DNA of 64,000 nt, taken from the NCBI GenBank assembly GCA_964369115.1, contig CAYJED010000001.1:3732-67731 (forward strand). Direction: 5' to 3'. The notes beneath the pieces were generated by a model. It had not been told where the DNA came from, searched no databases, and saw nothing but the letters and a program-made list of their open reading frames with translations. Of this stretch, positions 4,011 through 63,784 are shown piece by piece. This DNA comes from an uncultured Candidatus Saccharibacteria bacterium. Its GTDB lineage: Bacteria; Patescibacteriota; Minisyncoccia; Phycocordibacterales; UBA5272. The first letter of the stretch is position 1. The number at the start of each line of letters is the position of its first letter. Both the position numbers and the translations under genes were made by a program.

Positions 4011-4418
4011 TTATTTTTGTAAAACCATGAAGAGAAAAATGGAGGAAGTAATACTTCCAAGCATATACCAGTCTTCTGTGTTGGAAATAAGTATAATGAC
4101 AGAACCTATAATAAATGGTGAGAGTGCAATGATGGTTTGCATAATAGTTTCGATTCTGTGTACATTATTATTTTTTGATGGTTTCTTACACGCAATCAAA
4201 AGTAGACTTGCAATAATGAAGAGGTAAAAACTTAGATCTATGTACATAACATAGAAAGTATTAAACTCATCACTATTTTGTGGTTTTCCAAGCAATTGAA
4301 ATGCAAGTATTCCAGCAACAAGCTGAATAAAAATAAAAAAGAAAAGTCCCGCAACTATTGAGGTCATTACTTTCAGAACGTTTTTTGTAAAGAAGGTTTC
4401 TTTGTGAGAGCTGTTCAC
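4011..4418 (-). CDS. Small multi-pass membrane protein, hypothetical
   Basis: 135-aa hydrophobic ORF with a GTG start and an AAGGAG RBS 6 nt upstream. Confidence 0.4.
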   Translation of the reverse strand: MNSSHKETFFTKNVLKVMTSIVAGLFFFIFIQLVAGILAFQLLGKPQNSDEFNTFYVMYIDLSFYLFIIASLLLIACKKPSKNNNVHRIETIMQTIIALSPFIIGSVIILISNTEDWYMLGSITSSIFLFMVLQK

Positions 4419-4508: not shown

Positions 4509-6722
4509 TTATTTTTTATCTTGATTAAGTTTGTGAGGGTTGTGGTTGGGACATAGTTTATCCGAACAACGTTCTGGGATGGTTTTTGTTCCCTCTACCA
4601 TAAGTTCATCACATTTTGTACCGTCAGCTTTTACATACAGACAACGATTTCCTGTTGGACGTGTTTTAACAATATGTTTACAATCTGGGTAGTTTGAACA
4701 TGAATAGAAAATACCAAAGCGCCCCTTACGTTCCTCCATGTATCCATCTTTACACTTGTTACAATGAACTCCAGTAGAGTTTGCTTTACGAAGCTCTTCA
4801 TCCTGTTCAATGTATTTACACTTAGGATAGTTATCACATGCAATAAATTTACCGTACTTTCCTTCACGTTCCATGAGTTCACCTTTTTCACACTTTGGAC
4901 ATTTTTTATTCAGCTTCTTTGGTCCTTCCATAACACTTCCGTCAATTTTACGTGCACCAACACACTCTGGATAGCGAGAACATGAATAGAATTTACCGTT
5001 CTTTGCAAGCTTTACCACCATAGATGCCTTACAAAGTGGACAGAGAAGATCGCTCGGAGCATCGCCCATACTTGTTGCTTTTTCAAGATCGTCCTTTGCT
5101 TTTACATCTTTAATAAATGGACCGTAAAAATCACTAAGTGTTTTAAGATACGTTGCTTCACCTTCTGAGATGAGGTCAAGCTTATCTTCCATGTCTGCAG
5201 TAAAGGTGTCACTAATGTATTGACCAAAGTGATCTTCAAGGAAAGATATTACTACTTCGCCAGTATCGGTTGGGTGAAGTGCTTTATTTATTTTTTCTAC
5301 ATAGCCACGAGCTTCAATGGTGGAAAGAATTGAGGCATAGGTTGAAGGTCTTCCAATGCCTCGTTTTTCAAGCTCTTTAATGAGTCCAGCTTCTGTGTAG
5401 CGATGAGGTGGTTCTGTTTCTTTTTGTATAGCGTTCAATGCAACAAGAGAAAGTGCGTCACCTTCTTTTAAGTTAGGTAGAATTACGTCATCTCCACGAG
5501 CATCTTCATCTACTAGAAGCCATCCAGGAGAAATAAGAATAGACCCATTCACAGAAAAATCTGGAATAGATGATCCTATAATATTTGCAGTTACTTTTGT
5601 GCGCTTAATTTTTGCATCCCGCATTTGGCTTGCGACCGTTCTTTTCCAGATAAGTGAGTAGAGTTTCTTCTCATCATCTGTTGTTCCTCCATAACGAGAT
5701 GTAGCATGGGTCGGACGAATTGCTTCGTGAGCCTCTTGAGCATTTTTTGATTTTGTTTTGTACTGGCGAACAGACACCATCGCTTCACCAAACTCTTTTT
5801 TGATTACCTCTGTAATTTCTCCAATTGCCTGACCTGAAAGAGTGGTGCTATCAGTACGCATATAGGTGATAAGACCTTTTTCGTAGAGCTTTTGAGCAAT
5901 ACCCATGGTGCGAGACGGTGCAAAACCGAGCCGCGAAGATGCTGCTTGCTGAAGAGTAGAAGTAGTAAATGGTGCTTTTGGGGAACGGCTCGCTTCTGTG
6001 CTTTCAATGTTGATAACATTCCAAGAACCTTTAATACCTTCACGAACAATTCTATCTGCTTCATCTTTTACTTTTGGTTGTTCAACACATTCAAGGATGA
6101 GTGAGTATGTTTTTGATTCACTGAGTTTTCCTTCTGTTTTAAATTCTCCCGCAATAACAAAGTAGGTAACAGGAATAAATGCTCGAATTTCTCTTTCACG
6201 TTCCATAATAATGCGAAGTGCAGGGGACTGTACACGTCCAGCAGAAAGACCATAACGAACCTTTTTCCAAATTACTCCTGAAAGGTCGTACCCCACAAGA
6301 CGGTCGAGTACTCGACGAGCCTCTTGAGCCTCTTTCATTTTCATATCGATATCACGTGGGTGTTTGAGGGCTTCTTTGATAGCGCTTTCTGTAATTTCGT
6401 GAAAGGTAACACGCTTGGCATGATCAAGCTTGCAGGCTTCTTTTACGTGCCATGCAATAGCTTCTCCTTCACGGTCGGGGTCCGTTGCAAGAATCACTTC
6501 ATTAGCTTTCTTTGCGAGTGCTTTAATGTCACTTACTACCTTTTCTTTACCAGGACTCATTTCGTAATGAGGAATAAAGCCGCCTTCAATATCTACAGCC
6601 TTTTTATTACTTTTCGGAAGGTCTCTAATATGACCAACAGAGGCGCGTACTTCGTACTCGCCGTTTAGATATTTTGCTATTGTTTTTGCTTTTGAAGGGC
6701 TTTCTACAATGAGGAGTTTCAT
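4509..6722 (-). CDS. topA: DNA topoisomerase I
   Basis: TOPRIM N-terminus (LLIVESPSKAKTIAKYL), topoisomerase IA core, and C-terminal C4 zinc-ribbon repeats. Confidence 0.93.
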   Translation of the reverse strand: MKLLIVESPSKAKTIAKYLNGEYEVRASVGHIRDLPKSNKKAVDIEGGFIPHYEMSPGKEKVVSDIKALAKKANEVILATDPDREGEAIAWHVKEACKLDHAKRVTFHEITESAIKEALKHPRDIDMKMKEAQEARRVLDRLVGYDLSGVIWKKVRYGLSAGRVQSPALRIIMEREREIRAFIPVTYFVIAGEFKTEGKLSESKTYSLILECVEQPKVKDEADRIVREGIKGSWNVINIESTEASRSPKAPFTTSTLQQAASSRLGFAPSRTMGIAQKLYEKGLITYMRTDSTTLSGQAIGEITEVIKKEFGEAMVSVRQYKTKSKNAQEAHEAIRPTHATSRYGGTTDDEKKLYSLIWKRTVASQMRDAKIKRTKVTANIIGSSIPDFSVNGSILISPGWLLVDEDARGDDVILPNLKEGDALSLVALNAIQKETEPPHRYTEAGLIKELEKRGIGRPSTYASILSTIEARGYVEKINKALHPTDTGEVVISFLEDHFGQYISDTFTADMEDKLDLISEGEATYLKTLSDFYGPFIKDVKAKDDLEKATSMGDAPSDLLCPLCKASMVVKLAKNGKFYSCSRYPECVGARKIDGSVMEGPKKLNKKCPKCEKGELMEREGKYGKFIACDNYPKCKYIEQDEELRKANSTGVHCNKCKDGYMEERKGRFGIFYSCSNYPDCKHIVKTRPTGNRCLYVKADGTKCDELMVEGTKTIPERCSDKLCPNHNPHKLNQDKK

Positions 6723-13412: not shown

Positions 13413-14036
13413 TTAAATAAAAAGTTTAGCTTGTTTATATTTTCTTTCTAAAAAAATTGTACTATTTTCGTAAGATTTTTTTAGTAAAATTATACTATCT
13501 TTTTTGCCGTAAGTGAGAACATGCCAACTCTTTTCTTTTTGTGAGTATATCCAGCCACCTTGTATCGTCGACTCTTTTTTTATTTCCGAATGTATCCATT
13601 CTAAGAACGCTTTACTTGCTGAAGCTAATCTTATACGTAGCTGAGGGTGGTTGCTTTCTCTGTGGTAAAAAATATCAATATTACCATCGCCATCAATGCA
13701 CCCTCTAAGAAAGTGAAAAAAATATTTTTTTGGAATTTTAACTTTTTGTATTGTTTTAGATTTAGCTGGAGAAATTCCAAGTTCTAATAAAAATGTATAA
13801 AAGTTTTTATCTCCTATTTGTAAAACATAATACATTTTTCCTGTATTAGAATTTCTTTCTCCAATCATACAAGTAAGAAATAGGGATGTCTTTATTTTCA
13901 GGAGCAGCTCTTCATCCTTTGATGTGATCACTATATGTCTTCCGTCTATAGAAAGATTTCCATCGGTGGCAATAATCCCAATAATATAGGCAAGTTCAGA
14001 GGACCAGACTGTTGAAACTTTTTTCTTTTGTTTCAT
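13413..14036 (-). CDS. LAGLIDADG-family homing endonuclease, free-standing
   Basis: Two LAGLIDADG-type motifs (YIIGIIATDGNL and FLRGCIDGDGNI). Not embedded in an intron or intein within this window. Confidence 0.75.
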   Translation of the reverse strand: MKQKKKVSTVWSSELAYIIGIIATDGNLSIDGRHIVITSKDEELLLKIKTSLFLTCMIGERNSNTGKMYYVLQIGDKNFYTFLLELGISPAKSKTIQKVKIPKKYFFHFLRGCIDGDGNIDIFYHRESNHPQLRIRLASASKAFLEWIHSEIKKESTIQGGWIYSQKEKSWHVLTYGKKDSIILLKKSYENSTIFLERKYKQAKLFI

Positions 14037-22519: not shown

Positions 22520-22621
22520 GAGTATCTCCTCGTAGATTAAAGAACTGGTGATAATAGTACTCTTAAAAAAAATTTCGTCAAAATCTATCTTTTTTATGAT
22601 AGAGTATACTTACTTATAATT

Positions 22622-23914
22622 ATGTTTTCTTTTCTTCGTTTCAAAAAAAATGATCATAGAAATGGTCGTGTGTATCTTGACCATGCAGGAGCAACAGAGA
22701 TAGGAGTGCGACCGAAGGTTGCGCTCCTTAACGCGCTCTCTACCTACGGTAATCCGTCCGGTATTCACACAGAAGGTCGCTTAGCTGGGGTTCTTTTAGA
22801 TAAAGCGCGTAGCACATGTGCAACAGCCTTAAATGCACACTCATACGAAATATACTTTATGTCGTCTGGGACAGAAAGTTGTAATACCGCTATTTATGGG
22901 GTGTATGAAGGGTATATAAAAAGAAATAAAGGGAAGATTCCTCACATGATTGTGAGTGTCATTGAGCATCCTTCGATACTTGAGCCTGTGCGAGATTTAG
23001 AGAGAAGGGGAAACATTACAGTAACATATCTTCCTGTGTATGATAATGGCATCATTAAGGTGCGTGATATGGAGGAGGCTCTTACAGAAGAAACTATTTT
23101 GGTAAGCGTGATGTACGTAAACAATGAAATTGGCACTGTACAGCCGGTTAAAGAAGTTGGTCGTGTGCTTGAGTCATGGAAAAAAGATAAAGAAAGATCT
23201 CATACAGAGTACCCATACTTTCATACTGACGCTTGTCAGGCGGCTAATTACTATAATCTCGACGTAGTGCGACTTCGTGCCCACTTGATGACTGTAAATG
23301 GAGGAAAGGTGTATGGAGGAAAAGGTTCAGCACTTTTATACAAACGAGAGGGAATTATTGTAGAGCATATAGTAGAAGGTGGCGGTCAAGAAAGAACTCT
23401 TCGAAGCGGAACTGAAAATGTTCCAGCATACTACGCGTTTTCTGTTGCGCTTAATGAAGCAGTAGTGATGCGTGACAAAGAAGCAAAACGTTTACGCACC
23501 TTAAGAGACGTAACGGTAGAAGCTATACAAAAAGCAATTCCGGAAGCTGTTTTTTATGGAGCATTTGATGAGTACTGGGTACGCACTGCAGATAATAAAG
23601 ATATTTCTCATGAAAAGAAAATTCGTTTTGAGCGAAGGTCTCCAAATAATATTAATTGCCGTATCCCGGGAATAAGTAGCGAGGAGATGATTCTTAGACT
23701 TGATGCAAAAGGCTTTGCTGTCTCACATAAGTCAGCTTGCGCTTCCATGGAAACAGACGGAAGTTATGTGCTTACAGCACTCGGTGCAACAGAAATTGAG
23801 GCACGGGAAAATATTCGTATCACTATGGGAAGGTCTACCACAGAAGAGGATATGAAAAAGTTTGTTGAAGCGCTTAAGGATATTTCCGCTAAGTACACAA
23901 AGGTTAATGGTTAA
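22622..23914 (+). CDS. Cysteine desulfurase / class V aminotransferase
   Basis: Class V aminotransferase fold (VYLDHAGATE, SGTESCNTAIYG) with a PLP-lysine region. Long NifS/IscS-like protein. Confidence 0.8.
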   Translation: MFSFLRFKKNDHRNGRVYLDHAGATEIGVRPKVALLNALSTYGNPSGIHTEGRLAGVLLDKARSTCATALNAHSYEIYFMSSGTESCNTAIYGVYEGYIKRNKGKIPHMIVSVIEHPSILEPVRDLERRGNITVTYLPVYDNGIIKVRDMEEALTEETILVSVMYVNNEIGTVQPVKEVGRVLESWKKDKERSHTEYPYFHTDACQAANYYNLDVVRLRAHLMTVNGGKVYGGKGSALLYKREGIIVEHIVEGGGQERTLRSGTENVPAYYAFSVALNEAVVMRDKEAKRLRTLRDVTVEAIQKAIPEAVFYGAFDEYWVRTADNKDISHEKKIRFERRSPNNINCRIPGISSEEMILRLDAKGFAVSHKSACASMETDGSYVLTALGATEIEARENIRITMGRSTTEEDMKKFVEALKDISAKYTKVNG

Positions 23915-23935
23915 TGGTAGCTAGTTAATAGTTGA
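23903..23935. promoter_or_regulatory. ATTAAC-heptad repeat cluster, inverted orientation, overlapping the cysteine desulfurase stop codon
   Basis: GGTTAATGGTTAATGGTAGCTAGTTAATAGTTG, which is the reverse complement of the recurring YATTAAC direct repeat. Confidence 0.4.
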
Positions 23936-23967
23936 TACAATACTGAGACGCGATATACTGAATCTTA

Positions 23968-24321
23968 ATGAAGACGTTCAGAGATCTTGTTGTTTGGCAA
24001 CGTGCAATTGATTTTGCTACGTCAATCTATGAGGTTACTTCTCGTTTTCCGAGTTCTGAAATGTATGGATTAACAAATCAACTAAGAAGAGCAAGTGTTT
24101 CTGTGTCTTCAAATATTGCAGAGGGAAGTAAGCGTGGTTCTAAAAAAGAGTTCACACATTTTTTAAGAATAGCGCAAGGGTCTCTTGCTGAAATTGAAAC
24201 ACAACTTACGATAGCTAAAAATCTTAGTTTTGTCACTAGCGATAGATCTACAGAATTACTTAATGAACTAGAATCTATTACAAAGATGCTCACAAAGTTA
24301 ATTAATACGACGAAAGAATAA
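23968..24321 (+). CDS. Four-helix-bundle protein (TIGR02436 / 23S rRNA intervening-sequence protein family)
   Basis: Characteristic sequence (DLVVWQRAIDF...NIAEG...LRIAQGSLAEIETQL). Confidence 0.8.
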   Translation: MKTFRDLVVWQRAIDFATSIYEVTSRFPSSEMYGLTNQLRRASVSVSSNIAEGSKRGSKKEFTHFLRIAQGSLAEIETQLTIAKNLSFVTSDRSTELLNELESITKMLTKLINTTKE

Positions 24322-24356
24322 CTAACTATTAACCATTAACTAGCTACTATTAACTA
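24322..24356. promoter_or_regulatory. YATTAAC heptad direct-repeat cluster abutting the SOD-like gene start
   Basis: CTAACTATTAACCATTAACTAGCTACTATTAACTAC. Inverted relative to the cluster at 23903. Confidence 0.4.
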
Positions 24357-24357
24357 C

Positions 24358-24918
24358 ATGTATTCTCAAAAAGATTTTTCGCATTTACTTGGTATCGAAG
24401 GGTTAAGTGACACTCTCCTTAGTAATCATTTTACGTTGTACGCAGGATACGTCACCAACACTAATAAGCTTATTGATCTTATGAAGGAAAAGGAGGTTGG
24501 CACTCCAGAGTATGCTGAACTTCATCGAAGATTTGGTTGGGAGTGGAATGGTATGCGTCTTCATGAGCTTTATTTTAGTAATTTAGCAAAGCATGGAGTG
24601 GCGCTTAGTAATCGCGCACTTCGTCAAAAAATTGAAAGCACATGGGGCTCATATGAAAATTGGGAAAAAGAATTTAAAGGAATGGCGACCATGCGCGGTA
24701 TTGGTTGGGTGGTGCTTGGGTATGACAAGAATGACGGTAAACTCTTTAATATGTGGGTAGGGGAGCATGACGAAGGATATCTAGCTGGCACGACGCCACT
24801 TCTTGTGGTGGATGTATTTGAACATGCGTTTATGGTGGACTACGGACTTAAGCGTGCAGACTACATTGCTACTGTAATGAGTCATGTTGACTGGCATACC
24901 GTAGAAGAAAGAGTGTAA
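24358..24918 (+). CDS. Fe/Mn superoxide dismutase-family protein with a divergent N-terminal metal site
   Basis: C-terminal SOD signature region (GWVVLGYD...PLLVVDVFEHAFMVDYGLKRADYI) and the N-terminal helical hairpin. Confidence 0.65.
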   Translation: MYSQKDFSHLLGIEGLSDTLLSNHFTLYAGYVTNTNKLIDLMKEKEVGTPEYAELHRRFGWEWNGMRLHELYFSNLAKHGVALSNRALRQKIESTWGSYENWEKEFKGMATMRGIGWVVLGYDKNDGKLFNMWVGEHDEGYLAGTTPLLVVDVFEHAFMVDYGLKRADYIATVMSHVDWHTVEERV

Positions 24919-24933
24919 AAGATATACCTTTAT

Positions 24934-25299
24934 ATGTCTTATAAAGATTTTTCTTGGCTTGATTCAGTTCCGTATTCTTTTGATTTTAAAGAAGTCGGTA
25001 CATTGCGAGTAGTTATAAAAGATAGAGATGAATCTTGTAAAGAATATACTGTTCAAGATAATGTTGATTTGATTAAAGAAAGTATTGCGTCTTTGCCTGT
25101 TCATGGCGATGAGTATCTAAAGATGAATCCTGTTCAGATAACATTTGTTATTGGTTTGAAAGAAAATAATCCTATCGCTAAGATTGTCTTCTACGATAAC
25201 TTTCTTCAAGGAGAAAATACAGCCTTTTTTTCTTCAGAAGAGGTTACACATAAAGTTTTGGAATTAAAAAAGCTACTAACAGAAAGTATTAGGGAATAG
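24934..25299 (+). CDS. Hypothetical protein
   Basis: 121-aa ORF followed by a strong terminator. Confidence 0.5.
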   Translation: MSYKDFSWLDSVPYSFDFKEVGTLRVVIKDRDESCKEYTVQDNVDLIKESIASLPVHGDEYLKMNPVQITFVIGLKENNPIAKIVFYDNFLQGENTAFFSSEEVTHKVLELKKLLTESIRE

Positions 25300-25308
25300 T
25301 TAAGCATA

Positions 25309-25345
25309 AGAGCGGCGCCTACGGCGCCGCTCTTAATTTATTTTT
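25309..25345 (+). terminator. Intrinsic terminator
   Basis: GC-rich stem AGAGCGGCGCC/GGCGCCGCTCT followed by a T-run. Confidence 0.7.
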
Positions 25346-25392
25346 ACTATAAAAACAAAACCCCTTCGAAAAGGGGTTTGCGCGTTGTCACC

Positions 25393-25569
25393 TCAGAGGG
25401 TGACGAGGCTGTGTACCAATGGGTGATCCTTCACCGTTTGGAGTACGTACATGACGATCTCTTCGACCTTGAGGGTTGGATGCGTGATGTTCAGGTAGAA
25501 CACCGTGAACCCGAAAAAGACGAAGGTGATGCCGGCACTGCCAGCAATCACAGACAGAACCTTGCGCAT
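25393..25569 (-). CDS. Small membrane protein of 58 aa, hypothetical
   Basis: Internal ATG (MRKVLSVIAGSAGITFVFF...) with an AAAGGAG RBS. One TM helix. Confidence 0.4.
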   Translation of the reverse strand: MRKVLSVIAGSAGITFVFFGFTVFYLNITHPTLKVEEIVMYVLQTVKDHPLVHSLVTL

Positions 25570-25789
25570 GGAGACACTCCTTTCGCGGAAGAAAAAAGAA
25601 ATAACTACTGTATATAATATAGCATATTTAGTACACTTTGTCAAGTTGACGAAGGGGGTATTTTTTGCGAAGGTAAGTATATCCAGCTACGATTGTACAC
25701 CTGCTTATCCACCACGACTGAAACCCTGTATTCTGTTACACTGTATATGTATTTGAATTGTAGGTTGTATGGTTTTTGTTTGTATTTTG

Positions 25790-25812
25790 TAACTATTAAC
25801 CATTAACTATTG
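25790..25812. promoter_or_regulatory. YATTAAC heptad repeat 12 nt upstream of the clpB start
   Basis: TAACTATTAACCATTAACTATTG. Confidence 0.4.
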
Positions 25813-29032: not shown

Positions 29033-29073
29033 ACCTTTAAGTATAACAGAGTACTAATCTGTTATACTTAAAG
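29033..29073. repeat. Perfect 16-bp inverted repeat (CCTTTAAGTATAACAG / CTGTTATACTTAAAGG) with a 9-nt AGTACTAAT spacer, 12 nt upstream of the nuclease-like gene
   Basis: Seen directly in the sequence. Operator-like palindrome or strong hairpin. Confidence 0.6.
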
Positions 29074-29084
29074 GTAGATAAGTT

Positions 29085-37234: not shown

Positions 37235-37301
37235 GTGTGCATAAAGATACTAAAATAAATTACTTGTGGTTTGGTTATTTGGTATACTTTGAGTTATATA
37301 C

Positions 37302-40879: not shown

Positions 40880-41368
40880 TTAGCTGATTTTTTCTTTTGA
40901 TTCGTCACCATGGATTTCTTCAACATCCTCTTGAATTTCATCAAGGTCTTCTTGGATTTCTTCTACATCCTCCTGGATCTCGTCAACATCATGAGAAATT
41001 TCTTCAACATCCTCTTGAATTTCATCAATGTCTTCCTGGATTTCATGAACATCTTCTTGCATCTCTTCAACGTCATGAGAAATACCTTCCACATCTTCAG
41101 CGATTTCGTCAATTTCTTTTTCTACACTCGCGATAGCTCGAGCTTGATGGTTTACGCTCATTTGAATAAAAATAGAGAGGTAAATTGCTTCTAGGGATAC
41201 AATAGTAGTAAGTACAAGGAGTACTCTGTCGGTATTTACACCAAGTGCAATAAGCGAAAAAGCTCCTCCAAATAAAAGGGTGTGAATAAGTACTGACCAT
41301 ATAGAGCCAATTCCTCGAGTGAGAGAAAGAGCAATGGATTCTAGTTTGTTTATAGGAGAAGATACCAT
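40880..41368 (-). CDS. Membrane protein (DUF1003-like N-terminus) with a C-terminal acidic tandem-repeat tail
   Basis: Two TM helices, then repeated EIQEDVEE / ISHDVEEMQEDV units. Confidence 0.6.
   Translation of the reverse strand: MVSSPINKLESIALSLTRGIGSIWSVLIHTLLFGGAFSLIALGVNTDRVLLVLTTIVSLEAIYLSIFIQMSVNHQARAIASVEKEIDEIAEDVEGISHDVEEMQEDVHEIQEDIDEIQEDVEEISHDVDEIQEDVEEIQEDLDEIQEDVEEIHGDESKEKIS
40913..41100. repeat. In-frame tandem repeats (24-nt unit nested in a 90-nt unit) encoding the acidic tail
   Basis: ATTTCTTCAACATCCTCTTGAATTTCATCAA[G/T]GTCTTC... recurs at 40913 and 41003. Confidence 0.7.
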
Positions 41369-45334: not shown

Positions 45335-46363
45335 ATGTCTGGTATTACTTTTAAACCTAAAGCTGTGTCAAAAAAGCTTTTGACGACGCTCAATCCGCGA
45401 ACACGAGAGATCGTGGTAAATCGCTATGGTCTTGAAAAAGAGGCGCGTATGACCCTTGAGGCAATCGGGAAGACATATGACATCACTCGTGAACGTGTAC
45501 GACAGATTGAGAACTTTGCTCTTGCTACAATCAAGAAGTCAAAAGAGTACAAAGAGCATCTTTTTGTATTTGAAGAACTTAAGAAGATTGTTCATGAGCT
45601 TGGTGCTGTTGTAGGTGAAGATCACCTCATGCGTCATATTTCAAAGGATCCAATTGTTCAGAATCATATCAACCTTTACCTAGCTCTTGGTGAAGATTTC
45701 AAGAAGCATAAAGAAGATGATCATTTTCATCCTCATTTCACTATCGATGATAAGAAAGCAGAACATGTTCGTGATGCGCTTGTAAAGCTCTATTCATCAA
45801 TTGATGAAGAAGACCTTGTGAAGGAAGAAGAAATCTTTAATCGTTTTATGGGTCATTTAACTGATGTTGTAGGTGAATATAAGGAGAATAAAGAAATTAT
45901 TTACCGCTACCTCTCACTCTCTAAAGTAATCGGTAAGAATCAGTTAAGTGAATGGGGGCGTACATCATCTCCTCATGTTAAGGCTCGTGGTATTAAAGAT
46001 TATGCATACCTCATTATGCGTCGTGCAAATCGCCCAATGCACTTTAAAGAAGTTGCAGAAGAGATTAATAAAACTTTTGGTAAGCGTGCTCATGTGGCCA
46101 CATGTCACAATGAGCTCATCAAAGATTCTCGCTTTGTACTCGTTGGTCGTGGTATGTACGGTCTTAAAGACTGGGGACATACTGGTGGAGTAGTTCGTGA
46201 TGTGATTGTTGAAGTACTTAAAGAAGCGGGTCGACCTCTTCCAAAAGATGAAATCATTAAGCGTGTACTTGATAAGCGCATGGTAAAACCAAACACTGTT
46301 TTAGTAAATCTTCAAAACAGTAAACATTTTAAGAAGTCAGGCGGAGATTACGCTCTTGCGTAA
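45335..46363 (+). CDS. DNA-binding protein with an N-terminal sigma-70 region-4-like HTH and a C-terminal HARE-HTH (RpoE/delta-like) domain
   Basis: The N-terminal segment (REIVVNRYGL...TLEAIGKTYDITRERVRQIE) is region 4-like. The C-terminal segment (IKDYAYLIMRRANRPMHFKEVAEEI...RFVLVGRGMYGLKDW) is HARE-HTH-like. Confidence 0.55.
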   Translation: MSGITFKPKAVSKKLLTTLNPRTREIVVNRYGLEKEARMTLEAIGKTYDITRERVRQIENFALATIKKSKEYKEHLFVFEELKKIVHELGAVVGEDHLMRHISKDPIVQNHINLYLALGEDFKKHKEDDHFHPHFTIDDKKAEHVRDALVKLYSSIDEEDLVKEEEIFNRFMGHLTDVVGEYKENKEIIYRYLSLSKVIGKNQLSEWGRTSSPHVKARGIKDYAYLIMRRANRPMHFKEVAEEINKTFGKRAHVATCHNELIKDSRFVLVGRGMYGLKDWGHTGGVVRDVIVEVLKEAGRPLPKDEIIKRVLDKRMVKPNTVLVNLQNSKHFKKSGGDYALA

Positions 46364-48937: not shown

Positions 48938-49042
48938 CAAGTAATTAGTTATTAATAATGTGTAATTAGTAAGAATGCAGATGTCGTGATATTCTACAAT
49001 CCTATACCTAATTACTAATAACCAATTACTAATTACTCTCAC

Positions 49043-52600: not shown

Positions 52601-54499
52601 ATGTCACAAATACTTACTGTAAATCAAATTCGTACAAAATTCTTGCGCTACATGGAGGGGAAAGGTCACGTTGTCGTTCCTTCGGCTTCGCTTGTACCAG
52701 AAAATGACCCAACAACACTTTTTACCGGAAGTGGTATGCAGCCAATGCTTCCGTATCTTCTTGGACAGTCTCATCCACTTGGTCGCCGTATTGCAGACTC
52801 TCAGAAGTCGTTCCGTTCAGGGGACATTGAAGAGGTGGGCGATAATCGTCATACTACTTTTTTTGAAATGCTCGGTAATTGGTCTTTTGGTGATTACTTT
52901 AAGGAAGAAGAAATTACATGGATGTGGACATTTTTGATTGATGACCTTGGACTTGATCCACAACATTTTTATGTAACGTGTTTTTCCGGTAACGATGCAC
53001 TTAATGTTCCTCGTGATACATTCTCAGCAGAGCTTTGGCAGAAGCTGTTTAAAGAGAAAGGCGTTGATGCGCTTATCTCAAATACCCCAGAAGCAGGCAT
53101 GAAAGCTGGCGAGAGAATCTTTTATTATAATGAAAAGAAAAACTGGTGGTCACGCTCTGGGGTGCCACAGAATATGCCAGAAGGAGAGCCGGGAGGACCA
53201 GACTCTGAAATGTTTTATGACTTTGATCCGGCTGGTGAAAAGAAAATGCATGAAGGAAGTGCATGGGCACATGAACCTTGTCACGTAAACTGCGATTGCG
53301 GTCGTTTCCTTGAAATTGGAAATAATGTGTTTATGCAGTACAAGAAGGTGAACGGAGGATTTGAGGAACTTCCTCAAATGAACGTAGACCATGGGTCTGG
53401 GCTTGAGCGTTACGCTGCCGCTCTTCGTAATGATCCTGATGTATTTAATATTGATGTATTTGATACGCCAAAGAAAACTATTGAAGGTCTTTGTGGTGTC
53501 TCATATAAAGATGCCGACGAGAAAGGGGTGTACGGCTATCGTGTAGTGCTTGACCACATTCGCTCAACAACATTTCTTATAGGAGATGGAGTCCTTCCAG
53601 GAAACAAAGATCAAATGTACTTTGTGCGCCGTCTTGTGCGTCGTGCGGTACGCTTTGCACGTAACTTAGGAGTAACTTCTAACTTTACTGCAACGGTTGC
53701 AGGGTCATTTATTGATACGTACGGAGAAGAGTATAAAAATCTTATCGAGAAAAAGGAGATGATTATGTTTGAACTTGATAAAGAAGAGTCAAAATTCAGA
53801 AAAACGCTTGAGAACGGTATTAAGCAATTTGATAAAGTTGCAAAAGGGTCTATTTCAGGATCTGATGCATTTGATCTTCTTCAGACATATGGATTTCCTG
53901 TTGAACTTACACAAGAGCTTGCAAAAGAGCGTGGTATTGAAGTTGATATAGAAGAATTTGAAAAGCTTAAGAAAGAGCATGCTGACCAGTCTCGCACAGC
54001 TTCCGCCGGTAAGTTTAAGGGAGGGCTTGGAGGAGATGGAGAAATGGAAGTGAGGTTCCACACGGCTACACACATGCTTCATCAAGCGCTTCGTGAAGTC
54101 CTTGGCGAAACTGTTGAACAGAAGGGGTCAAATATTACACCGGAGCGTCTTCGCTTTGACTTTGCATTTGATCGTAAGATGACAGATGAAGAAAAGGGTC
54201 AGGTAGAAAATATTATTAACGCACGCATTAAAGAAGCTCTTCCTGTTATTCGTGAAGAAGTGTCTATGGATGAGGCACATACCCGTGGAGCAATTGGACT
54301 TTTTGGTGATAAATACGGTGATATGGTAAGTATTTATCGTATCGGTGAAGGGAAGAGTCGTGGAGATCAAAATCTTTTTTCAATGGAATTTTGTGGTGGG
54401 CCTCATGTAGAAAATACAAGTGTGCTTGGAACATTCTCCATTCAAAAAGAAGAGGCAGTATCTGCTGGTGTGCGTCGCATTAAAGCAGTATTACATTAA
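52601..54499 (+). CDS. alaS: Alanyl-tRNA synthetase, short form lacking the C-Ala domain
   Basis: Catalytic core (FFEMLGNWSFGDYFK) and editing-domain HxxxH (HTATHMLHQAL). Confidence 0.9.
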   Translation: MSQILTVNQIRTKFLRYMEGKGHVVVPSASLVPENDPTTLFTGSGMQPMLPYLLGQSHPLGRRIADSQKSFRSGDIEEVGDNRHTTFFEMLGNWSFGDYFKEEEITWMWTFLIDDLGLDPQHFYVTCFSGNDALNVPRDTFSAELWQKLFKEKGVDALISNTPEAGMKAGERIFYYNEKKNWWSRSGVPQNMPEGEPGGPDSEMFYDFDPAGEKKMHEGSAWAHEPCHVNCDCGRFLEIGNNVFMQYKKVNGGFEELPQMNVDHGSGLERYAAALRNDPDVFNIDVFDTPKKTIEGLCGVSYKDADEKGVYGYRVVLDHIRSTTFLIGDGVLPGNKDQMYFVRRLVRRAVRFARNLGVTSNFTATVAGSFIDTYGEEYKNLIEKKEMIMFELDKEESKFRKTLENGIKQFDKVAKGSISGSDAFDLLQTYGFPVELTQELAKERGIEVDIEEFEKLKKEHADQSRTASAGKFKGGLGGDGEMEVRFHTATHMLHQALREVLGETVEQKGSNITPERLRFDFAFDRKMTDEEKGQVENIINARIKEALPVIREEVSMDEAHTRGAIGLFGDKYGDMVSIYRIGEGKSRGDQNLFSMEFCGGPHVENTSVLGTFSIQKEEAVSAGVRRIKAVLH

Positions 54500-54523
54500 G
54501 CTTGTATAAAAGGTTGTAGCAAA

Positions 54524-54556
54524 AAAAGAGACCCCAACTAAGGGTCTCTTTTTGTT
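54524..54556 (+). terminator. Intrinsic terminator after alaS
   Basis: Stem AAAGAGACCC/GGGTCTCTTT followed by TTTG. Confidence 0.7.
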
Positions 54557-54562
54557 GTGTCC

Positions 54563-54588
54563 ACTATTAACTATTAACCATTAACTAT
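54563..54588. promoter_or_regulatory. YATTAAC heptad triple repeat upstream of the hypothetical gene at 54603
   Basis: CACTATTAACTATTAACCATTAACTAT. Confidence 0.4.
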
Positions 54589-54602
54589 ATACTGTGTACA
54601 TA

Positions 54603-54995
54603 ATGGAACAGCCAAAAAATTTTCTCTCAATTGCTGTCGGTGACACCTCTACGCTCATCAACTATCTTGTTGATGGACATATTCTTGTTTCTCATCTTCA
54701 TCCAATCGGATACAAACACATCGAAGCAGAAGGAATGAATGTTATTGCTCGCTCTAAACTTATTGATGGTGTGATGTATACACTTGAATTTGTGTCACTT
54801 CACGACAGAATACCAACTGACTTCAGACTTATTGCACCAAGGTATGCAACATGGATAGGTGAGACACTTGAAAGCGCCTCTTATTCACAGTTCTTTACAG
54901 ATGGCGTACCTATCAGTGTTACACTAGAGGGTGTTAAGGACGTTCCTCTCTCATATGCAAGACATTCGCAAACCATACACTCGTTCAAGGTCTAA
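54603..54995 (+). CDS. Hypothetical protein
   Basis: 131-aa ORF directly downstream of the heptad-repeat motif. Confidence 0.5.
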   Translation: MEQPKNFLSIAVGDTSTLINYLVDGHILVSHLHPIGYKHIEAEGMNVIARSKLIDGVMYTLEFVSLHDRIPTDFRLIAPRYATWIGETLESASYSQFFTDGVPISVTLEGVKDVPLSYARHSQTIHSFKV

Positions 54996-56908: not shown

Positions 56909-57289
56909 ATGCGTATCTCAGGTATTACACTCCCAGAAAACAAACGACTTGAAATTGCACTCACTGCAGTATACGGTGTTGGTCGTCCTCGCGCTAAAAT
57001 GATCATTGAAAAACTTGGTCTAGAGATGGGGATGCGTACCACCGAACTTACTCCTGATCAGGAAAATCTCATTCGTCGTGAAATTGAGCTTTTTAAAACA
57101 GAAGGAGATTTGAAGCGTGAAGTTCAGCAAAACATCAAGCGTCTTAAGGATATCAAAGCGTACAGAGGTGTTCGTCACATCAAGCGCCTTCCTGCTCGTG
57201 GACAGAGAACAAAAACTAACAGCCGTACCGTACGTGGAAACGTTCGTCGTACTATGGGAAGCGGACGCCGCAAGACTGAAAAGACATAA
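56909..57289 (+). CDS. rpsM: 30S ribosomal protein S13
   Basis: MRISGITLPENKRLEIALTAVYGVG... Confidence 0.93.
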   Translation: MRISGITLPENKRLEIALTAVYGVGRPRAKMIIEKLGLEMGMRTTELTPDQENLIRREIELFKTEGDLKREVQQNIKRLKDIKAYRGVRHIKRLPARGQRTKTNSRTVRGNVRRTMGSGRRKTEKT

Positions 57290-57326
57290 AAATAAAGTCT
57301 AAAGTAATAATTTATATACAAACATT

Positions 57327-57761
57327 ATGGGAAAGAAACGAATCGTAAAAAAGAATAGTTCAGGAGTTGATAGCGCACTTAAGGCGCGATCACTTGCTCG
57401 AGCAATCAAGAAGAAACTTGTTGATGGAACACTCTTTGTTGAGTCTTCTTACAACAACACTCGTCTTTCGCTTGCTGATAAAAGCGGTAACGTTATTGCT
57501 TGGTCATCATCCGGAGCTCTTGGATTTAAGGGTGCAAAGAAAGGAACTCCTTTTGCTGCTTCTAAAATCGGTGAACTTATCGGTGAAAAAGCTGAGCAGT
57601 TCGGTATCAAGGAAGTTAACGTTGTTGTTAAGGGTGTAGGGTCTGGTCGTGAGTCAGCGATCCGTGGCTTTTCAACTTTTGGGGTAGAAATTTCTTCAAT
57701 TATTGACAAGACTCCTGTTCCTCACAATGGTCCGAAGCCTCCAAAGCCTCGCCATATTTAA
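57327..57761 (+). CDS. rpsK: 30S ribosomal protein S11
   Basis: Core region NNTRLSLADKSGNVIAWSSSG. Confidence 0.93.
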   Translation: MGKKRIVKKNSSGVDSALKARSLARAIKKKLVDGTLFVESSYNNTRLSLADKSGNVIAWSSSGALGFKGAKKGTPFAASKIGELIGEKAEQFGIKEVNVVVKGVGSGRESAIRGFSTFGVEISSIIDKTPVPHNGPKPPKPRHI

Positions 57762-57784
57762 TTATTTAATCTTTAGTATAGTTT

Positions 57785-58405
57785 ATGAGTAGAATTACAT
57801 GTAAAACCTGCCGCCGACTTGGAGAGTCACTCTGTGGACGCGAAAAATGTGCGTTCAAGAAGCGACCTTACGCTCCAGGAAAGCTCGACAGTGAACGTAA
57901 GCACCGTTCAAGTGTTTCTGAATACGGTGAACAGCTTCGTGCAAAGCAGAAGATGCGTCATACTTACGGACTTATGGAGAAGCAATTCGCTATGTACGTA
58001 AAGCGTGCAACAGCTGCACACGAAACAGGTGAAGGATCTATTGCTCCATCTCTTAAGCTTGCTCGTCAGCTTGAATCACGTCTCGATAACATTGTGTATC
58101 GTGCAGGTTTTGCAACTACTCGTGCGCTTGCTCGCCAGATGGTGTCTCATGGACACATTGTGGTAAACAATCGTCGTATTAACATTGCTTCACATCAGGT
58201 AAAGATTGGTGACGTTATTGCTATCCGTGAGGGTAGTAAGTCAACAAAGCTCTTTACTAATCTTGAAGAAAAGTTAACAGCGCTTGCACCAAGTTATGTG
58301 CTTACTCTTGATCCTAAGCATTTTTCTGCAACAGTAAAAGCTGAGGTTCGTGAAGTTGAGCCAATGTTCGATACCCAAAAAGTTCTCGAATACTACTCAC
58401 GTTAG
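57785..58405 (+). CDS. rpsD: 30S ribosomal protein S4
   Basis: N-terminal Cys-rich region and S4 domain. Confidence 0.93.
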   Translation: MSRITCKTCRRLGESLCGREKCAFKKRPYAPGKLDSERKHRSSVSEYGEQLRAKQKMRHTYGLMEKQFAMYVKRATAAHETGEGSIAPSLKLARQLESRLDNIVYRAGFATTRALARQMVSHGHIVVNNRRINIASHQVKIGDVIAIREGSKSTKLFTNLEEKLTALAPSYVLTLDPKHFSATVKAEVREVEPMFDTQKVLEYYSR

Positions 58406-58569
58406 TAACTTCTTTGAACCTGTTATATCTACAACAGGTTTATTGTAGTACCACATACTTGCGTACTTTGCAATTTTAGGTTAGAATATAATAACTTTAA
58501 TTAGTACAGTGCGAGGTGCGTCTTTAGTTAACTTTCTATTAAATTTAAGGATTACTATTTATTTGTCTT

Positions 58570-59535
58570 ATGTCTTCACATTCTATCATTTTGCCATCAA
58601 AGCCAAGAATTGTTAAAGAAGATGCTGTATCAGGTGTGTATGAAATTGACGGACTCTATCCAGGGTACGGCCACACGCTTGGTAACTCACTTCGTCGTAT
58701 TATTCTTTCATCTATTCCTGGAGCTTCAATTACAGCGCTTTCTATTGATGGTGTTAAGCATGAATTTTCAGCGATTGACGGAATTAAGGAAGATGTAATT
58801 GCAATTATTCTTAACCTTAAAAAAACTCGTTTCAAGCTCCACGGTGATGATGCTCAGAAGGCAACACTTCACATTAAAGGGGCAAAGACTGTTACTGCAA
58901 AAGACATTACACTTCCAACTCAGCTTGAAGTAATGAACGCTGACCAATATATCTGCGAATCTACAGCAAAAGATGTTGATATCGCAATTGAGATCACTGT
59001 TGAAAAAGGTCTTGGATATGTTCCTCGTGAAGTTCTTCAGAAGGAGAAGGCTGATATTGGTACTATTTTCCTCGATGCGTCATTTACACCAATTCGTCGC
59101 GCAAGTTACGAAGTGGAAAACATGCGTGTTGGCGATCGTACAGATCATAACCGACTAAGAGTTACTATCGAAACTGATGGTACTATCACTCCACATGAAG
59201 CTCTTGAAAGTTCAATTCACACTATGATTACTCAACTCCAATCAATTGTTGGATTCCGTGAGCAGGTGATTGATTTTCCAAAAGATCATGCATCTATGCC
59301 AGTTGAAGCAATTTCAGTTGAGGAAGACATAAGTGATGCAAGTAAAGTTCGTGTAGAAGACCTCGGTCTTTCTACTCGCACAGAAAATGCTCTTGTTTCT
59401 GCATCTGTTCGCACTGCAGGAGGTCTTACTCGTAAGACTGAAGAGGACCTTCTTTCTCTCGATGGTCTTGGAGAAAAGGGGGTAACAGAAATTAAAAAAG
59501 CATTAGGAGATTTAGGGCTCACCCTTAAAGCGTAA
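58570..59535 (+). CDS. rpoA: DNA-directed RNA polymerase subunit alpha
   Basis: N-terminal dimerisation domain and alpha-CTD (LGLSTRTENAL). Confidence 0.93.
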   Translation: MSSHSIILPSKPRIVKEDAVSGVYEIDGLYPGYGHTLGNSLRRIILSSIPGASITALSIDGVKHEFSAIDGIKEDVIAIILNLKKTRFKLHGDDAQKATLHIKGAKTVTAKDITLPTQLEVMNADQYICESTAKDVDIAIEITVEKGLGYVPREVLQKEKADIGTIFLDASFTPIRRASYEVENMRVGDRTDHNRLRVTIETDGTITPHEALESSIHTMITQLQSIVGFREQVIDFPKDHASMPVEAISVEEDISDASKVRVEDLGLSTRTENALVSASVRTAGGLTRKTEEDLLSLDGLGEKGVTEIKKALGDLGLTLKA

Positions 59536-59587
59536 TACGCCAAAAGAGAGTACCTTTCGTTCTAGATTTAGTTAATAATTACGACGT

Positions 59588-59941
59588 ATGAAACATCATA
59601 AAGCATTCAGAAAATTCGGTAGAGAAAAGAATCAGCGCAAGGCATTTGTGCGTGGTCTTATAATCAACCTTATCCGCCATGGAAAAATTGAAACAACACT
59701 TGCTCGAGCAAAGGAAATTCGTCCTTTTGTAGAGAAGCTTGTTACTCTTTCTAAGGAAGATACAGTAGCTCGTCGTCGTCTTGTGATGTCTCGTCTTCTT
59801 AATCAGGAATATGAGGTAAAGAAACTCTTTGCTGAGTACGCTCCTAAGTTTAAGGATGTTAACGGTGGATACACTCGTATTCTTAAGCTTCCTACACGTC
59901 TTTCTGACGGCGCTCTAAAAGCTGTTATCGAATTTGTTTAA
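59588..59941 (+). CDS. rplQ: 50S ribosomal protein L17
   Basis: RKFGREKNQRKAF... Confidence 0.9.
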   Translation: MKHHKAFRKFGREKNQRKAFVRGLIINLIRHGKIETTLARAKEIRPFVEKLVTLSKEDTVARRRLVMSRLLNQEYEVKKLFAEYAPKFKDVNGGYTRILKLPTRLSDGALKAVIEFV

Positions 59942-59954
59942 TATTTTTACTACT

Positions 59955-60299
59955 ATGAATCACACAATTGACGCAACAGGAAAGGCATTAGGACGTTTAG
60001 CAAGTGAAGTTGCTGCTCTCCTTAATGCAAAAAATAGTGTTAACTTCGTTAAGAATCGCGTAGCAGATGTAACTGTTACTGTGGTTAACGCAAGTAAACT
60101 TAAAGTTACAGGAAACAAGATGAACGAAAGTGTTCATAAGTCATACTCTGGATATCCAGGAGGTCTTAAAGAAATGCCTCTTAAGTATGTTGTTGCCAAG
60201 AAAGGGTACGCTGAGCTCATCACTCACGCAGTAAACGGAATGCTCCCAAAGAATCGTCTTCAGGATATTCGTATTAAGAATCTCATCATCAAAGATTAA
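59955..60299 (+). CDS. rplM: 50S ribosomal protein L13
   Basis: Start set at MNHTIDATGKALGRLAS. Confidence 0.9.
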   Translation: MNHTIDATGKALGRLASEVAALLNAKNSVNFVKNRVADVTVTVVNASKLKVTGNKMNESVHKSYSGYPGGLKEMPLKYVVAKKGYAELITHAVNGMLPKNRLQDIRIKNLIIKD

Positions 60300-60304
60300 T
60301 TATT

Positions 60305-60712
60305 ATGTCAGTAGAAACTAAGAATCGCTATATAGAAGCCGTTGGTCGCCGCAAGACTGCTGTTGCTCGTGTACGTATTACACCAGGAACAAAGTCATCT
60401 TTTGTTATTAATGATAAAGATGTTAAAGAATACTTTACAACATCTGATCTTCAGTCTATTGCACAGGAAGCACTTTCAAAGTCAGAGATTAGTGAGAAGT
60501 TTACTGTTACTGTTAAGGTAATGGGAGGTGGTATCCACGCTCAGGCTGAAGCTGTTCGTCACGGACTTTCTCGTACTCTTGTGGAGCGCGATGAACAGGT
60601 GAAGAACACTCTTAAGAAGCTTGGCTTCCTTAAGCGTGACTCACGTCAAGTTGAACGTAAGAAGTTCGGACTTAAGAAGGCTCGTAAAGCTCCTACTTGG
60701 TCAAAGCGCTAG
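60305..60712 (+). CDS. rpsI: 30S ribosomal protein S9
   Basis: C-terminus KKARKAPTWSKR. Confidence 0.93.
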   Translation: MSVETKNRYIEAVGRRKTAVARVRITPGTKSSFVINDKDVKEYFTTSDLQSIAQEALSKSEISEKFTVTVKVMGGGIHAQAEAVRHGLSRTLVERDEQVKNTLKKLGFLKRDSRQVERKKFGLKKARKAPTWSKR

Positions 60713-60800: not shown

Positions 60801-60946
60801 CGTGTATCTAAAGCAATTTTATAGCGCTCTAAAGCATTAACCTGTATGCAATAAACAAAACCGCACAACTATGCGGTTTTGTTGTGTCTAACAAGTAAGT
60901 TGTTGTGTGAGTAGTAAGTGATATACTTTGCATATTATATATAGAT

Positions 60947-63018: not shown

Positions 63019-63047
63019 TTGACTTTTTTTGTGCGTACCTGTATAAA
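63019..63047 (+). promoter_or_regulatory. Sigma-70-like promoter (TTGACT-17-TATAAA) upstream of grpE
   Basis: Hexamers with 17-nt spacing seen in the sequence. Confidence 0.5.
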
Positions 63048-63139
63048 AATAAGGTACTGTAATGATTGATTTTCTGCTATGATTGTATGACCGTATTCCT
63101 GTGATTATTATTGATTATTGAAAACACCTAAGAATATTT

Positions 63140-63739: not shown

Positions 63740-63758
63740 ACGTTTTGTATTTACTAGC

Positions 63759-63784
63759 AACTATTAACCATTAACTATTAACTG
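63759..63784. promoter_or_regulatory. YATTAAC heptad triple repeat between grpE and dnaK
   Basis: AACTATTAACCATTAACTATTAACTG, ending 10 nt before the dnaK ATG. Confidence 0.4.

Follow-up and report, generated by a model that had tools for sequence, protein, structure and literature searches.

The window analyzed here, a 64-kb stretch of contig CAYJED010000001.1 from an uncultured Candidatus Saccharibacteria bacterium, carries tandem arrays of the heptad YATTAAC (Y being C or T) close to the start codons of clpB, dnaK, a superoxide dismutase (SOD)-like gene and a hypothetical gene. Two YATTAAC arrays of the window are the arms of a single element inserted between protein-coding genes. On its upstream side, an inverted (minus-strand) array that is G/T-rich on the plus strand (left arm, 23903-23937) overlaps the stop codon (23912-23914) of a class-V aminotransferase gene (22622-23914). 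It is followed on the plus strand by a sigma-70-like promoter, TTGATA-16-TATACT (23932-23959), which matches 10 of the 12 consensus positions and, as judged by that consensus, probably serves the next gene (23968-24321, plus strand), which encodes a four-helix-bundle protein in the loop between the two arms. The right arm, a G-poor array on the plus strand (24323-24356), occupies the entire spacer from the stop codon of this gene to the ATG of the SOD-like gene (24358-24918, plus strand, Sod_Fe_C domain), the host gene located directly 3′ of the element.

The four-helix-bundle protein is a member of PF05635 (23S_rRNA_IVP, 1e-40) and TIGR02436 (4e-40), a membership missed by the initial annotation of this DNA. 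This intervening-sequence protein (IVP) is a distant relative of Avd from diversity-generating retroelements, and the solved structures closest to it are 2GSC and 2RLD, with five chains per entry. The arms surrounding the gene, whose relationship had also gone unseen, are 89% complementary over 28 nt (the left arm pairing with 24327-24354), and their duplex reaches z = -4.1. A stem of about 25-30 bp is possible around the open reading frame (ORF), and in this the terminal inverted repeats fit an intervening sequence (IVS). No rRNA occurs in the 64-kb window, and the rRNA-helix location of an IVS is absent. In the 23S rRNA IVS of Coxiella, RNase III cleaves a 28-bp stem formed by terminal inverted repeats that enclose the S23p ORF (PMC4990558), and tandem GACAGAT heptamers, whose number varies between strains, are found upstream of the ORF (Warrier 2016, PMC4990558). 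The two elements thus share a protein family, encoded in the loop of a ~28-bp inverted-repeat stem, and an ORF-adjoining arm of tandem heptamers with variable copy number; the Coxiella IVS is regarded as a selfish element, a further likeness to the cassette of the window. They differ in location, since the Coxiella element sits in helix 45 of the 23S rRNA, from which it is excised by RNase III, whereas that of the window lies between protein-coding genes.

Comparison with related genomes revealed that the IVP cassette between the aminotransferase and SOD-like genes is an insertion. The relatives comprised 80 metagenomic loci from the candidate phyla radiation (CPR) encoding ClpB relatives of 64-93% identity; these and the other comparison loci are labeled L plus a number. 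Two contigs from Saccharibacteria metagenome-assembled genomes (MAGs), L086 and L007, are syntenic with the window, the identities in this comparison being 92% for ClpB, 74% for the SOD-like protein, 73% for IVP and 68% for GrpE. The aminotransferase-(IVP)-SOD-clpB order is conserved in relatives, with both filled and empty sites present. The cassette layout is shared by L086, L121, L123 and L125, and inverted heptad arms bracket every IVP gene of these loci and of the window, including the frameshifted gene of L123. The window, L086 and L125 share the unit YATTAAC, and L121 and L123 have CTAATTA; the paired arms are complementary and co-vary between elements. In L120 (ClpB 88%), the orthologous site is empty: its spacer measures 39 nt, contains a TATACT box and lacks heptads. 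Both arms therefore arrived together with the IVP gene. Solo arrays without an IVP gene occupy the aminotransferase-SOD site in L132 and L134.

On re-reading of the sequence, all five YATTAAC sites listed in the initial annotation were located. Besides the two cassette arms, three are solo arrays on the plus strand: at 25790-25811, 12 nt before the clpB ATG and within a leader of probably about 75 nt; at 54563-54588, preceding a 130-aa hypothetical gene; and at 63748-63783, in the grpE-dnaK spacer, with its end 11 nt before the dnaK ATG. None of these solo arms has a G on the sense strand. A second inverted pair, overlooked until now (48940-49037), is built from a different heptad: a G/T-rich (AGTAATT)n arm (48940-48972, plus strand) begins 3 nt past the stop codon of a yceG-like gene, and a G-free (CTAATTA)n arm (49008-49037, plus strand) stops 5 nt short of the ATG (49043) with which a DEDD/RNase T-like exonuclease gene begins. 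The 35-nt loop between them contains no gene, and the RNA hairpin folds with z = -1.9. The arrays of the window hence take three forms, namely the IVP cassette arm pair, a gene-less arm pair and three solo arms, and at these sites the G-poor strand precedes an ORF start while the G-rich strand lies at or after the preceding stop.

Statistical analysis confirmed that these arrays are not a product of chance. The exact 19-mer AACTATTAACCATTAACTA starts at 24324, 25791, 54569 and 63759, with about 0.08 matches expected in the window even at 3 mismatches. Similarly, YATTAACYATTAAC with at most one mismatch was found 8 times versus 0.19 expected, a count that none of 100 shuffles attained. Single YATTAAC heptads showed a mild enrichment (35 versus 22.5 expected), so that the signal resides in the tandem arrays. 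Period 7 was reported by Tandem Repeats Finder at every array site of the window. The four forward 19-mer cores all lie on the plus strand and end 14-17 nt upstream of an ATG, that of the SOD-like gene (24358), clpB (25824), the hypothetical gene (54603) and dnaK (63795).

The association of IVP genes with heptad arms extends well beyond this lineage. In the Bacteroidota loci L027, L055 and L074, the IVP genes likewise lie inside inverted heptad arms, and the same heptad unit flanks IVP genes in both Bacteroidota and Saccharibacteria. Of 14 IVP genes drawn from Saccharibacteria, Bacteroidota and viral contigs, 13 had complementary arms, at z = -3.2 to -6.7. Plasmids of cultured organisms also carry IVP genes with heptad arms, as in Nostoc punctiforme pNPUN02, (GTCAGGA)n, and Riemerella anatipestifer, (AACCTTG)n, and the IVP gene of Azospirillum lipoferum p2 has (GGACAGA)n arms. 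In a sample chosen from IMG/VR by protein similarity alone and comprising 41 usable loci, a few of which are near-duplicates, complementary flanks (z ≥ 4) were found for 33 of the 41 PF05635 genes. Period-7 arrays occurred in 23 upstream and 25 downstream flanks of this sample, with at most 3 each for periods 5, 6, 8 and 9, and the arm units, GTAACGT, CACTCTC, CTACAGA, CCTTCTG and GCCGAAC among them, were unrelated in sequence. In the control, 19 of 450 random genes had complementary flanks; because 14 of these 19 were themselves IVP genes, the non-IVP background amounts to about 5/436. Nearly every IVP gene is accompanied by arrays, but the majority of arrays lack an IVP gene. No paper on a generalized link between IVP genes and heptad arms emerged from the literature searches, and the coupling of PF05635 genes to such arms across the family appears to be new, as do an IVS-type cassette outside rRNA and heptad repeats in Saccharibacteria and other CPR bacteria.

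The right arm abuts the downstream gene in the CPR and Bacteroidota examples. That it always does so was rejected, since a same-strand start within 150 nt was found for 14 of the 41 viral-contig IVP genes. In the GC-richer IVP cassettes (L207-L251; e.g., L207, L209, L224, L229 and L241), the upstream arm is purine-rich and resembles a Shine-Dalgarno (SD) sequence (GGAG, AGGA, GAGG), and the downstream arm carries the anti-SD-like complement (CTCC, CCTC); throughout this sample, the arms are G-rich 5′ and C-rich 3′ of the gene.

At orthologous sites, the repeat period is conserved and the unit sequence is not. An array of YATTAAC precedes dnaK in L007, in the same place as in the window, and the same unit is found before clpB in L120 and L125. 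The conservation before chaperone orthologs that the operator proposal called for therefore holds at these sites, and for period 7, but not for the sequence of the unit. In L086, the IVP cassette before the SOD-like gene has YATTAAC arms, but the array before clpB is (GCTAATG)n. The clpB arrays of the 80-locus set end 1-8 nt before the ATG, with units that include ACTAATT, CTATCGA, GCTAATC, TAATTAT, ACCTAGA, AATTTAT, GATTTAA, TTTTTAA and also CTAATTA. Relative to the window, the unit has changed at the clpB or SOD orthologous sites of L086, L121, L123, L126 and many of L127-L199, and both copy number and unit vary at the same position in the leaders of clpB, the SOD-like gene and dnaK (L007, L086, L120-L199). 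Across 843 kb of related CPR DNA, we counted 81 arrays of period 7 versus 3 in composition-preserving shuffles; the corresponding values were 15 versus 2 for period 8 and 4 versus 1 for period 9. The 30 nt immediately upstream of the ATG were largely occupied by an array in 17 of 80 clpB genes (21%) versus 17 of 548 other genes (~3%), and 8 of these 17 other genes were the SOD-like gene. Arrays of period 8 were observed at equivalent positions in L185 (clpB leader) and in L266 (a Gemmatirosa plasmid), with the sequences ACTTTATA and CTGCCCTC; the period-7 rule is thus strong, not absolute.

This recurrence of position and periodicity with a changing sequence is the reverse of the pattern expected from a conserved operator, and it bears on the interpretation given in the initial annotation, according to which the tandem heptads form a double-stranded DNA operator of CtsR-like architecture, bound by the repressor of a heat and oxidative stress regulon. 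The exact 19-mer common to four sites, the stress-related nature of three of the downstream genes, the retention of YATTAAC before dnaK and clpB in the relatives named above and the enrichment of arrays before clpB and the SOD-like gene all agree with such a site, as does a placement between promoter and start codon that is typical of CIRCE and CtsR operators (the 54563 array may even overlap a promoter). Moreover, no canonical box competes for the role, and the annotation was right to set these apart. The CtsR consensus RGTCAAA-NAN-RGTCAAA, with up to 3 mismatches, gave 9 matches in the window versus 12.7 expected, none at the array sites; the controlling inverted repeat of chaperone expression (CIRCE), TTAGCACTC-N9-GAGTGCTAA, gave none in the window with up to 3 mismatches; and the HspR-associated inverted repeat (HAIR), CTTGAGT-N7-ACTCAAG, gave 2 weak matches versus 4.3 expected, neither of them near a chaperone gene.

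The CtsR operator of Firmicutes is also a heptad direct repeat upstream of clp and chaperone genes, but CtsR boxes keep their sequence across genera, whereas the units of the window vary even among close relatives; in addition, RGTCAAA-NAN-RGTCAAA is not present in the window, where no CtsR match was obtained among the scanned ORFs. In genomes with 88-93% identical ClpB, the unit is replaced at orthologous sites while a 20-mer of the clpB promoter, GCTTATCCACCACGACTGAA, is perfectly conserved. Furthermore, the same arrays are found in front of unrelated genes in various phyla, cassette arms missing from the empty site account for two of the five copies, the exonuclease gene bears a different heptad pair, and none of the copies has a regulator gene linked to it. 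We consider an operator function very unlikely. What stands of the proposed transcription factor binding site is a non-random cis element common to the clpB, dnaK and SOD-like leaders; its identity as the sequence-specific operator of one stress-regulon factor does not.

For a clpB-specific promoter or operator, GCTTATCCACCACGACTGAA is a better candidate; it is conserved, and the heptads downstream of it vary. It lies upstream of clpB (25703-25742 region), is unique in the window and is followed 14 nt later by TGnTACACT, the conserved putative -10 box of clpB (25737-25742); both are unchanged, and equally placed, in L120, L123, L125 and L126, the relatives closest to the window. The pair loosely resembles a sigma-32-type -35/-10 pair. 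No motif common to the clpB and grpE promoters was found, grpE having a plain TTGACT-17-TATAAA promoter (63021-63049) with a leader of probably about 85 nt. A short period-7 repeat, (ATTATTG) in 2.1 copies (63107-63121), lies 20 nt upstream of the grpE start codon. The palindrome GTCAAGTTGAC at 25640 was rejected as the true heat-shock operator, since it occurs once and coincides with the -35 element of a divergent TTGACA-17-TATATT promoter. This strong minus-strand promoter, with a TG extension, has its -35 element in the palindrome TTGTCAAGTTGAC (25616-25654) and faces a small SD-bearing ORF for a membrane protein (~25393-25569, minus strand), in a locally GC-richer segment between terminators at 25307-25335 and 25358-25379.

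The motif is not private to stress genes. A scan with the 19-mer, using one genome per species, recovered it at at least 119 loci in many phyla, often before unrelated genes. Among the matches listed are Nostocaceae, many Bacteroidota, Poribacteria, Planctomycetota, Omnitrophota, Chlamydiota and Acidobacteriota, as well as the CPR groups Saccharibacteria (L007, L038, L086), Woesebacteria and Falkowbacteria. All the matches listed sit inside longer period-7 arrays, and those of Nostocaceae are mostly inverted pairs such as (TGGTTCA)n...(YATTAAC)n. Arrays lie a few nucleotides before genes as diverse as rpsJ (L035), rpsG (L059), rplO (L060), ruvX (L078) and dxs (L037, L065), the downstream genes being named by reading their first codons. 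With a start codon within 30 nt of the array, the matches listed comprise 30 in forward orientation (G-poor sense strand) versus 9 in reverse. The presence of an IVP gene beside each YATTAAC array was rejected, as 4 of 119 among the cross-phylum matches listed had one. In the Saccharibacteria MAG contig L038, a direct repeat of ~50 nt containing the 19-mer (cattcctcattcaaaaAACTATTAACCATTAACTAgaYactattaacttgtta) is present in two copies separated by 1.47 kb (4164-4245 and 5607-5735), which flank small ORFs; these ORFs may represent a different cargo between heptad-containing ends.

The arrays of the window share most of their features with heptanucleotide repeats described in other bacteria. 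Cyanobacterial short tandemly repeated repetitive (STRR) sequences, reportedly described by Mazel in 1990, are said to be tandem heptanucleotides scattered through intergenic DNA, as here; many of the YATTAAC matches listed are in Nostocaceae, as inverted pairs. STRR sequences have been used mainly as fingerprinting markers, and to our knowledge there is no description of them from CPR bacteria. The GGGNATC heptamers of Xanthomonas and Nostoc place their G-rich strand within 50 bp after stops and their C-rich strand within 50 bp before ORFs (Rehm 2015, PMC4692102); they are transcribed, and their length and sequence differ between close relatives (PMC4692102). They follow the same strand rule as the arrays of the window, with the G-rich strand sometimes overlapping stop codons, and occupy the same intergenic positions in relatives with variable length and sequence. 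However, GGGNATC units are G-rich and form quadruplexes, which the AT-rich YATTAAC cannot do, and PMC4692102 draws no connection with IVP. The TAACTGA repeats of Beggiatoaceae, cyanobacteria and Bacteroidetes are located just before the start codons of SD-less genes, overlapping the ribosome-binding region, and a role in translation has been proposed for them (MacGregor 2015, PMC4679880). Like the arrays of the window, they are intergenic and consist of 2-6 or more tandem 7-nt units in forward orientation a few nucleotides before starts, precede genes without obvious common function, show a patchy distribution suggestive of horizontal transfer and contain a TAAC core (TAACTGA versus TAACTAT and TAACCAT). 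They differ in unit sequence and in host, that of the window being a CPR/Saccharibacteria bacterium, and in the explicit IVP cassette and inverted arm pairs of the window; PMC4679880 does not mention IVP.

In the window, SD-like motifs were found for 5 of 63 genes, and none of the array-bearing leaders contains GGAG, GAGG or AGGA. Many genes have a TATACT/TATAAT-like box 7-20 nt before the ATG (e.g., 22600-22621, 29060-29084, 37280-37301 and 60925-60946), which implies very short leaders and possibly leaderless mRNAs as the norm. The arrays themselves did not provide such boxes: the hexamers located 7-12 nt before the ATGs (GAACAT, ACTGTG, TGAATT, ACTATT) mismatch TAnnnT, so that a function as the -10 box of a leaderless mRNA was rejected, and promoter scans found no promoter inside the arrays. 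An RNA thermometer or leader hairpin was likewise rejected for the solo arrays, which folded no better than shuffles: z = -0.03 for the clpB leader, z = +1.59 for the essentially unstructured grpE-dnaK spacer (minimum free energy of -2.4 kcal/mol), z = -0.34, without significant RNA structure, for the 54563 array, and z = -1.5 to +0.65 for the leaders of relatives. Signatures of RNase III, CspA-like and S1-like proteins were also sought in the window and gave no useful result.

On balance, we lean towards the view that the YATTAAC repeats are intergenic heptanucleotide arrays of the STRR/TAACTGA/GGGNATC class, acting as IVS-type hairpin arms and as SD-less leaders. In read-through transcripts, paired arms would form a long stem that may be processed by RNase III, by analogy with the Coxiella 23S rRNA IVS. 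Solo arms would be transcribed within the leader or the intercistronic spacer and would provide there, rather than a double-stranded DNA operator, a G-free, unstructured zone serving, or at least compatible with, SD-independent ribosome loading. Bacteroidota, cyanobacteria and CPR are SD-poor lineages, and such a landing zone would explain the accumulation of arrays in them.

Several points weigh against this view. First, the IVP promoter lies downstream of the left arm, so that the stem would form in read-through transcripts only, and both RNase III cleavage and the role in translation are put forward by analogy. Secondly, the 54563 array is located between a terminator-like hairpin followed by a T run (~54527-54553, read by eye and not listed by a consensus scan of 54400-54700) and a TATACT hexamer (54588-54593, plus strand, read from the sequence directly after the array), and may therefore belong to a promoter and not to an mRNA. 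Thirdly, the exact 19-mer is found at four sites despite the fast turnover of units between species, which suggests either recent copying or a reader of the sequence specific to this genome, neither of which is explained by the leader model. Fourthly, the ribosomal-protein genes at 56909-60712 have no arrays, and high expression alone is thus not the rule. Finally, an IVP gene adjoins clpB at not one of the 80 loci, which indicates that the clpB arrays are not simple cassette scars.

This last point also concerns an explanation that we regard as possible though doubtful, in which the arrays are no more than the termini, scars or insertion targets of a mobile IVS-type IVP cassette, expanded by replication slippage and without host function, and persist at start codons because an SD-independent lineage has no ribosome-binding site to disrupt. 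The patchiness of orthologous sites (filled, empty or solo), the quick turnover of units and copy numbers, the presence of similar units at different loci of one genome and of one unit around IVP genes in Bacteroidota and Saccharibacteria would all be expected of such elements. Similarly, IVP genes are found between unrelated genes, as in cas operons, where they are interspersed (Zhang and Ye 2014, PMC3936711), and heptamers are the most slippage-prone class of long simple sequence repeats according to Mrazek 2007 as cited in PMC4679880. However, neutrality fits poorly with the orientation bias of the cross-phylum matches, with the lack of an IVP-filled clpB site among the 80 loci and with an array length that is constant in six same-strain contigs from different samples. 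It also fits poorly with the recurrence of arrays at clpB while their sequence changes, which suggests selection on position and not mere tolerance.

Those six contigs, 99.97-100% identical to the window, likewise argue against phase-variable contingency loci, in which a 7-nt change in copy number would alter the spacing between promoter and start and switch expression. Copy number does differ between species at the same site, and heptamer copy number varies among Coxiella strains (PMC4990558), but no length change was found in the covered arrays of the six contigs, whose strains are essentially clonal, and stress chaperones are atypical contingency genes. We judge this mechanism highly improbable.

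The near-constant embedding of IVP genes in heptad arms raises a further question, that of a trans-acting IVP. As a homologue of Avd, which binds nucleic acid in diversity-generating retroelements, the protein might bind heptad RNA or DNA and regulate its own gene together with the solo-array genes clpB, dnaK and the hypothetical gene. The similar units at different loci of one genome would suit such a reader as well, and heptamer-rich taxa (Nostoc, Xanthomonas, Bacteroidota and the Coxiella IVS) also have IVP genes. In Nostoc, heptamer repeats affect the expression of recF and recO (Pradhan 2022, bioRxiv 10.1101/2022.06.06.494920), and that study postulates a heptamer-binding partner. On the other hand, L086 combines YATTAAC cassette arms with a different unit before clpB, L120 has a clpB array and no IVP gene at the SOD site (within the locus region seen), and the authors of the Coxiella study argue that S23p is probably not expressed (PMC4990558). 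Regulation in trans by IVP therefore appears unlikely to us.

Other features of the window include a 21-nt (7-codon) tandem repeat of about 8 copies (40893-41123) within a minus-strand DUF948/coiled-coil gene (40880-41368), and a LAGLIDADG_3 ORF (13413-14036, minus strand) adjoining tRNA-Leu. Beside this ORF, a stretch from 14.0 to 15.8 kb, with ~50% GC, carries two long overlapping ORFs on opposite strands, of 417 aa (minus) and 398 aa (plus). A Pfam search with the 398-aa ORF gave no match, the region had no Rfam match above the gathering score, and it may be foreign or non-coding DNA. A 342-aa protein (45335-46363) combines Sigma70_r4 and HARE-HTH domains, an unusual transcription-related architecture.

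Start-proximal heptanucleotide repeats have been known from cyanobacteria since 1990 and were subsequently noted in Xanthomonas, Beggiatoaceae and Bacteroidetes, with no agreement on their function or origin, while PF05635 proteins are abundant and structurally solved with no assigned function. The present analysis shows that heptad repeats and PF05635 genes are physically coupled across many phyla and base compositions and extends the phenomenon to CPR/Saccharibacteria. It also calls for caution in regulon prediction, where such arrays can be misread as transcription factor operators. A bolder proposal, to which we assign a low probability, is that PF05635 genes and intergenic heptad repeats form one widespread system, an IVS-type hairpin cassette with heptad arrays as its arms and a protein that recognizes heptad nucleic acid in trans. 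If this were true, the solo arrays would place clpB, dnaK and the SOD-like gene under IVP control or would mark former cassette sites, and the system would explain how the STRR, TAACTGA and GGGNATC repeats arose, as well as their shared phyletic distribution and their closeness to start codons.

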